Origin: Escherichia coli
Lineage (GTDB): Bacteria; Pseudomonadota; Gammaproteobacteria; Enterobacterales; Enterobacteriaceae
Length of the DNA stretch: 64,000 bases
Assembly (NCBI RefSeq): GCF_003334785.1
Contig: NZ_QOWV01000002.1
Direction: 5' to 3' (one strand)
The notes beneath the pieces were generated by a model. The model had not been told where the DNA came from and searched no databases. It saw only the letters and a list, made by a program, of their open reading frames with translations. This document shows positions 3,218 through 3,301 of this stretch, one piece after another (positions within the stretch are counted from its first letter, which is position 1; the number at the start of each line of letters is the position of its first letter). A program made the translations under genes and the position numbers.

Positions 3218-3301
3218 TTAAAATATCATCTTAAATACGCCAGTCACCACCAGTAGCCCAATCAGGAAAATAATCAATACAGCCCAGAGTATAATTTTCA
3301 T
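3218..3301 (-). CDS. yohP: small membrane protein YohP (27 aa)
   Basis: Minus-strand ATG at 3301 translates MKIILWAVLIIFLIGLLVVTGVFKMIF then stop; single TM helix; matches remembered YohP; below ORF-track length cutoff. Confidence 0.8.
   Translation of the reverse strand: MKIILWAVLIIFLIGLLVVTGVFKMIF

Follow-up and report, generated by a model that had tools for sequence, protein, structure and literature searches.

The 27-codon open reading frame between dusC and mdtQ in a stretch of the Escherichia coli chromosome is almost certainly yohP, a known small membrane-protein gene

We have examined an open reading frame (ORF) of 27 codons on the minus strand at positions 3218-3301 of the window, the whole 64-kb stretch of E. 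coli DNA that was analysed. The ORF is, almost certainly, chromosomal yohP, a free-standing, monocistronic small gene with reported expression and a reported role in the membrane. yohP is an already known gene, with a RefSeq annotation, an NCBIfam model and several dedicated papers, and finding it again adds nothing new. The result serves as a positive control, since a reading of the raw sequence recovers a true 27-codon gene missed by a 60-amino-acid ORF cut-off. [quoted passage not shown] What the present comparison contributes is an estimate of pN/pS, an invariant segment of residues 14-27, a conserved −10 box that is likely of sigma-S type, the patchy linkage of yohP to dusC and the finding that the published mRNA stem-loops lack evolutionary support.

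Identity and position of the gene

The ORF is flanked by dusC and mdtQ, lies on the strand opposite to both and faces dusC. The features are as follows.

1898-2845, plus strand: dusC, tRNA dihydrouridine(16) synthase (BL21(DE3) annotation)
3218-3301, minus strand: yohP coding sequence (CDS), ATG start, 27 codons and a TAA stop (translation, RefSeq CDS and NCBIfam match)
3525-4961, plus strand: mdtQ (BL21(DE3) annotation)

The reverse complement of 3218-3301 is ATGAAAATTATACTCTGGGCTGTATTGATTATTTTCCTGATTGGGCTACTGGTGGTGACTGGCGTATTTAAGATGATATTTTAA, which translates as MKIILWAVLIIFLIGLLVVTGVFKMIF. An ORF list made with a minimum of 20 amino acids holds the same entry (3218-3301, minus strand, 27 amino acids, ATG), and no start codon lies between the in-frame upstream stop and the ATG at 3301. 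The original prediction, of a minus-strand ATG...TAA frame with 27 sense codons at this place, was therefore accurate to the base and to the residue. It had also called the gene unlisted and hidden. That is correct for the ORF list at its default cut-off of 60 amino acids, which drops the frame, but not for public annotation, which has carried yohP for years.

The name yohP, given in the original prediction, is borne out by two routes. Over 801 bp surrounding the ORF the window is 100% identical to chromosomes of the E. coli BL21 lineage, and the equivalent 84 bases of BL21(DE3) carry the RefSeq annotation yohP, with the product "small membrane protein YohP" (WP_000691708.1). The peptide also scores 67.3 bits against the NCBIfam equivalog NF011345, for which the cut-off is 58 (E = 7.7e-19), with residues 1-27 aligned on positions 1-27 of the 27-position profile. 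In the public protein collection the exact peptide, named YohP, occurs on at least 1000 contigs. A search of the PDB gave no chain matching the peptide.

A region of 231 bp containing yohP is 100% identical in K-12 MG1655, and YohP of E. coli K-12 (UniProt C1P609, WP_000691708.1, NF011345) shares the identical 27 amino acids, position and orientation; it is the same gene. The 231-bp region is matched in 5423 of 5426 complete E. coli genomes, the remaining three having no match. Sampling 30 rows across the ranking of these matches found the yohP label in 29, the exception being the deletion strain CFSAN061769 discussed below. Among the matches listed, the most divergent copy with full coverage retains 94.8% nucleotide identity and encodes the same protein accession.

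Conservation and selection across Enterobacterales

Loci from 80 species of Enterobacterales were fetched by way of the neighbouring DusC protein, and so were not selected by similarity to yohP. The gene was then sought within 3 kb of dusC with tblastn and a hidden Markov model (HMM) of the orthologues. A 27-codon orthologue is found near dusC in 18 of the 80 species loci. Carriers comprise five Escherichia, nine Citrobacter-like genomes (one of them labelled a Raoultella MAG) and two Salmonella, together with one each of Franconibacter, Enterobacter quasihormaechei and Buttiauxella.

Every orthologue is exactly 27 codons long. Of the 27 columns at each codon position, 10 vary at the first, one at the second and 22 at the third. 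With 16 distinct coding sequences pooled, pS is 0.59 and pN is 0.042, a ratio of 0.07. The position of the stop is fixed whilst the codon itself alternates between TAA, TAG and TGA, and frame +1 is open in all 19 sequences. Only seven distinct peptides occur. The N-terminal half holds all the substitutions, which are exchanges among isoleucine, leucine, valine and alanine; from residue 14 to residue 27 (IGLLVVTGVFKMIF) the seven peptides are identical. The original prediction had proposed a search for the reading frame in related genomes; it is kept in related genera, with a pN/pS of about 0.07.

Conservation is confined to a small island. In an alignment of 12 sequences across genera this consists of the CDS, the Shine-Dalgarno (SD) sequence and a block reading CCTATACT, the flanks being otherwise unalignable. 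In O157:H7, CFT073 and other E. coli strains homology stops 2 nt past the yohP stop codon, at window position 3216. Judged from the alignment, such an island combined with such a codon pattern is characteristic of a gene that encodes a protein and has a promoter of its own.

The linkage to dusC is patchy. In the 62 remaining dusC loci the HMM detected no further, more diverged copy. These 62 loci without yohP within 3 kb include four Citrobacter species whose congeners carry the gene (L009, L010, L013 and L019), as well as every Klebsiella, Pectobacterium, Serratia, Yersinia and Erwinia locus in the sample. The arrangement in 18/80 Enterobacterales is fewer than the "most gamma-proteobacteria" of PMC12719787, although we caution that our figure counts dusC-adjacent copies only and that yohP could lie elsewhere in genomes lacking a dusC-linked copy.

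Two losses are instructive. In the type strain of E. albertii, NBRC 107761 (L005, 1087-1226), promoter and CDS have gone from the syntenic site. Homology resumes on the mdtQ side, at window position 3360, about 140 nt past dusC, and an inverted fragment of a dispersed repeat lies between dusC and the resumed homology. The Escherichia species other than E. albertii keep an identical YohP. In E. coli CFSAN061769 (L083, NZ_CP042969.1) mdtQ and yohP are both missing, and the interval between yohF and dusC holds an IS5-like ISKpn26 transposase with a frameshift. This natural deletion is consistent with yohP being dispensable.

The peptide and the chance background

YohP has one predicted transmembrane helix, spanning residues 3-23 or thereabouts and flanked by Lys2 and Lys24. 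The grand average of hydropathy (GRAVY) is 2.47, with a mean Kyte-Doolittle value of 3.0 for residues 3-23. Lys2, Gly15, Gly21 and Lys24 are invariant across all orthologues. The conservation of Gly15 and Lys24 matches published roles, of the former in dimerisation (PMC7549839) and of the C-terminal lysine (PMC12542507).

Does so short a frame represent a gene at all? An ORF of 27 codons by itself is no evidence of one: ORFs of 20-40 amino acids number 560 in the window, and frames of this size are not above chance. That abundance is what would favour a chance intergenic ORF with no gene present. The yohP frame is, however, the most hydrophobic of the 560 (GRAVY 2.47, the next being 1.91) and has an ATG start preceded by an SD sequence; its length of exactly 27 codons is kept in six genera under purifying selection, the curated family model recognises it and the protein has been detected experimentally. 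We rejected the chance reading, the probability of which is vanishingly small, on the NF011345 match, the purifying selection across genera and the literature.

Promoter, ribosome-binding site and expression

Two elements precede the CDS.

3308-3312, minus strand: SD sequence AAGGA, 6 nt before the ATG, read from the sequence
3332-3338, minus strand: likely −10 element CTATACT (TATACT at 3337-3332, C at 3338)

A purine-rich GGA or GGGA block stands at equal distance from the start codon in the aligned sequences of Escherichia, Citrobacter, Salmonella, Enterobacter and Buttiauxella. On the strength of position and conservation, AAGGA presumably acts as the ribosome-binding site. Further upstream, CCTATACT is the sole conserved block, approximately 30 nt before the ATG in the 12-sequence alignment across genera. 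The same alignment has no conserved −35 upstream of CTATACT, and the sequence beyond is unalignable.

TATACT preceded by C, with no conserved −35, is an arrangement preferred by sigma-S. CTATACT is thus likely to be a sigma-S-type −10 element of the yohP promoter, which would place the transcription start near 3325 and give a 5′ UTR of about 25 nt. From a −10 of this type with almost no −35 it would follow that yohP is a gene of stationary phase or nutrient limitation. The yohP promoter was not picked up by a scan for the sigma-70 consensus, and a terminator scan of the yohP region gave no intrinsic terminator.

Published observations bear on expression. Salmonella YohP (STnc1330), carrying a 3xFlag tag, is an abundant protein in stationary phase and nearly undetectable in a delta-rpoS strain (PMC5437024), and we infer a dependence on sigma-S in E. 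coli also. The level of YohP in E. coli rises in stationary phase (PMC12719787). Epitope tagging, suggested with the original prediction as a check on translation, has thus already given a positive answer, with the 3xFlag tag in Salmonella and with a chromosomal SPA tag that allowed detection of YohP from its native promoter in E. coli (PMC12719787). An earlier report that SDS/EDTA and H2O2 induce YohP was not reproduced (PMC12719787). The copy number is cited as approximately 1000 per cell in MOPS medium (PMC12542507).

Salmonella STnc1330/YohP is an orthologue differing from the E. coli protein by two conservative substitutions (I4L and V8I). It shares the CCTATACTT −10 block, the SD sequence and the dusC-adjacent position, and it is translated and sigma-S-dependent (PMC5437024). 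It differs in having been first catalogued as a non-coding small RNA (sRNA), and its 3′ flank is unrelated to that of E. coli.

Readings at the level of RNA

A published model, from the preprint bioRxiv 10.1101/2022.11.21.517368, gives the yohP mRNA two stem-loops, put forward as determinants of membrane targeting, and we tested it on 16 orthologous CDSs. The yohP CDS does fold into these two stem-loops, weakly (−9.8 kcal/mol), and shuffled sequences form folds that are just as stable (z = +1.1). Over the 16 orthologues covariation for the stem-loops equals that of shuffled controls, and stem 1 (nucleotides 10-25) pairs in 39% of cells, essentially only in Escherichia. The U content of the CDS, on the other hand, is 38-49% across orthologues (41% in E. 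coli) compared with 25% T in the window. Since the stem-loops lack covariation and the U-richness is conserved, composition is the better-supported conserved RNA feature.

Could the conserved unit nevertheless be a non-coding or dual-function sRNA, with the ORF incidental or only part of its function? The history of the Salmonella transcript, catalogued first as the sRNA STnc1330, abundant and sigma-S-dependent, lends the idea some appeal, as does a transcript that is short and monocistronic with antisense frame −2 open in 19/19 sequences. That open frame is probably a by-product of codon composition. Opposed to an sRNA are the variation of 22 of 27 third positions compared with one of 27 second positions, the pN/pS of 0.07, a fold no better than shuffles with no covariation to indicate RNA structure, a 3′ UTR that is not conserved even within E. 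coli, and the detection of tagged protein expressed from the native gene in E. coli as well as in Salmonella. An RNA-only gene was rejected because the codon positions vary as in a coding sequence, covariation is lacking and the protein itself has been detected, and we regard the sRNA explanation as extremely improbable.

A variant retains the coding function and grants the transcript a second role, either as a dual-function sRNA or through antisense interplay with a plus-strand transcript running from near 3236 towards mdtQ. We found no covariation in the yohP mRNA, no conserved UTR, and an antisense promoter-like site only at the level expected by chance. A role for the yohP transcript in addition to coding is unsupported, and the variant seems to us highly unlikely. 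yohP is best read as a protein-coding gene.

The type I toxin-antitoxin question

A further alternative is a type I toxin-antitoxin module of the kind represented by TisB/IstR, DinQ/AgrB and Ldr/Rdl, with YohP as the toxin and an antisense RNA that represses its translation. YohP is like the type I toxins in its size, single helix, membrane depolarisation and nucleoid condensation, a resemblance to TisB-like toxins that the YohP authors themselves discuss (PMC12719787, PMC12542507). In addition, a plus-strand site in the region would give rise to an RNA complementary to the yohP CDS. This site and two sub-threshold matches to Rfam families are listed here.

3202-3229, plus strand: sigma-70-like promoter match (ATGACA, 16 nt, TATCAT; 10/12 matches), heading towards mdtQ
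2917-3054, plus strand: sub-threshold match to TwoAYGGAY, 29.7 bits against a threshold of 43, E = 0.019
3135-3195, minus strand: sub-threshold match to AgvB, 22.9 bits against a threshold of 56, E = 0.07

The site at 3202-3229 is the only one of its kind in the region, where chance alone predicts 1.3, and its −35 falls in the 3′ flank, which is conserved neither across genera nor within E. coli. The 12-sequence alignment contains no conserved non-coding block beside yohP that might encode an antitoxin RNA. No Rfam family reaches its threshold in the yohP region; the TwoAYGGAY and AgvB matches lie in or beside a structured dispersed repeat and probably arise by chance. Physiology also argues against a toxin, as the depolarisation caused by YohP is sublethal; in stationary phase the native gene yields about as much YohP as plasmids do, yet cells are not killed (PMC12719787, PMC12542507). 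With no antitoxin RNA evident by sequence and a plus-strand site at chance level, the type I module was rejected, and there is only a very slim likelihood that it applies. We return to yohP as a free-standing gene.

Membrane insertion and physiology

YohP is a carbonate-resistant protein of the inner membrane, mainly oriented N-out/C-in, as reported from fractionation, carbonate resistance and protease topology (PMC7549839). It forms SDS-resistant dimers for which Gly15 is required, is bound by SRP post-translationally and is inserted via SecYEG or YidC (PMC7549839). Binding of yohP mRNA to the membrane is independent of translation, and the membrane-bound mRNA permits insertion that does not depend on SRP (bioRxiv 10.1101/2022.11.21.517368).

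Production of YohP lowers membrane potential and fluidity and raises cardiolipin, induces the Psp response and, through (p)ppGpp, the stringent response, with a reduction in protein synthesis, and condenses the nucleoid, whilst a delta-yohP strain tolerates ciprofloxacin and oxidative stress less well (PMC12719787, PMC12542507). The authors caution that the effects of YohP come mostly from premature, plasmid-borne expression in exponential phase and that the delta-yohP phenotypes are mild (PMC12719787).

These reports, taken with the sequence features described, give the following course of events. yohP would be transcribed from a promoter with the −10 element CTATACT and almost no −35. In the published account the short, U-rich mRNA (41% U) localises to the inner membrane with no need for translation. 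A chain of 27 residues is too short to leave the ribosome before termination, so recognition by SRP/FtsY is post-translational, and SRP/FtsY then pass YohP to SecYEG or YidC. Where SRP is compromised by (p)ppGpp, YohP is reported to be inserted instead in an SRP-independent manner from membrane-bound mRNA. Once in place the protein is a single helix, mainly N-out/C-in, dimerising through Gly15. Accumulated YohP is reported to dissipate part of the membrane potential, which leads to the phage-shock response, a rise in (p)ppGpp, lower global protein synthesis, condensation of the nucleoid and a shift of the cell towards metabolic silencing.

Relationship to other small membrane proteins

YncL (31 amino acids), YkgR and YohO belong to the same class as YohP, proteins of less than 50 amino acids with one transmembrane helix and induced by stress or in stationary phase. 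YncL, in common with YohP, causes sublethal depolarisation and nucleoid condensation (PMC12542507), and YkgR likewise cross-links to SRP (PMC7549839). The three differ from YohP in having no sequence homology to it and in having separate NCBIfam models, that for YohO being NF010225.

TisB, DinQ and LdrD are also small single-helix peptides of the inner membrane that lower membrane potential and condense the nucleoid, and they are linked to dormancy and persistence. In contrast to these, YohP has no evident antisense antitoxin RNA, is sublethal at native levels and shares no sequence similarity with them.

Other features of the window

A second gene for a small membrane protein, yohO, lies on the minus strand at window positions 16561-16668, with 35 codons, an ATG start and an SD sequence. 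The ORF matches the NCBIfam equivalog NF010225, "protein YohO", with 80.1 bits against a cut-off of 57. It is likewise a known gene and likewise missed by the 60-amino-acid filter.

Between dusC and yohP, at 2950-3140, is a dispersed repeat of about 190 bp that has no RefSeq annotation. It occurs at a median of three, and up to eight, places per E. coli genome, with one copy in the window, and possibly belongs to an intergenic repeat family already named in E. coli. The 3′ flank on the yohP strand folds strongly (−67.4 kcal/mol, z = −6.0), and within the fold is a perfect 12-bp GC hairpin at 3077-3108.

On the other side of yohP, mdtQ is annotated as an intact gene for an outer-membrane protein of 478 amino acids in the BL21-lineage record, which matches window positions 2900-3700 with 100% identity, and in the window the mdtQ frame is open through 4961. 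Whereas mdtQ is annotated as intact in the BL21-like sequence matching the window, it is reported to be a pseudogene in K-12 (PMC12719787). In several strains an IS1 insertion is present inside the 801-bp yohP/mdtQ region.
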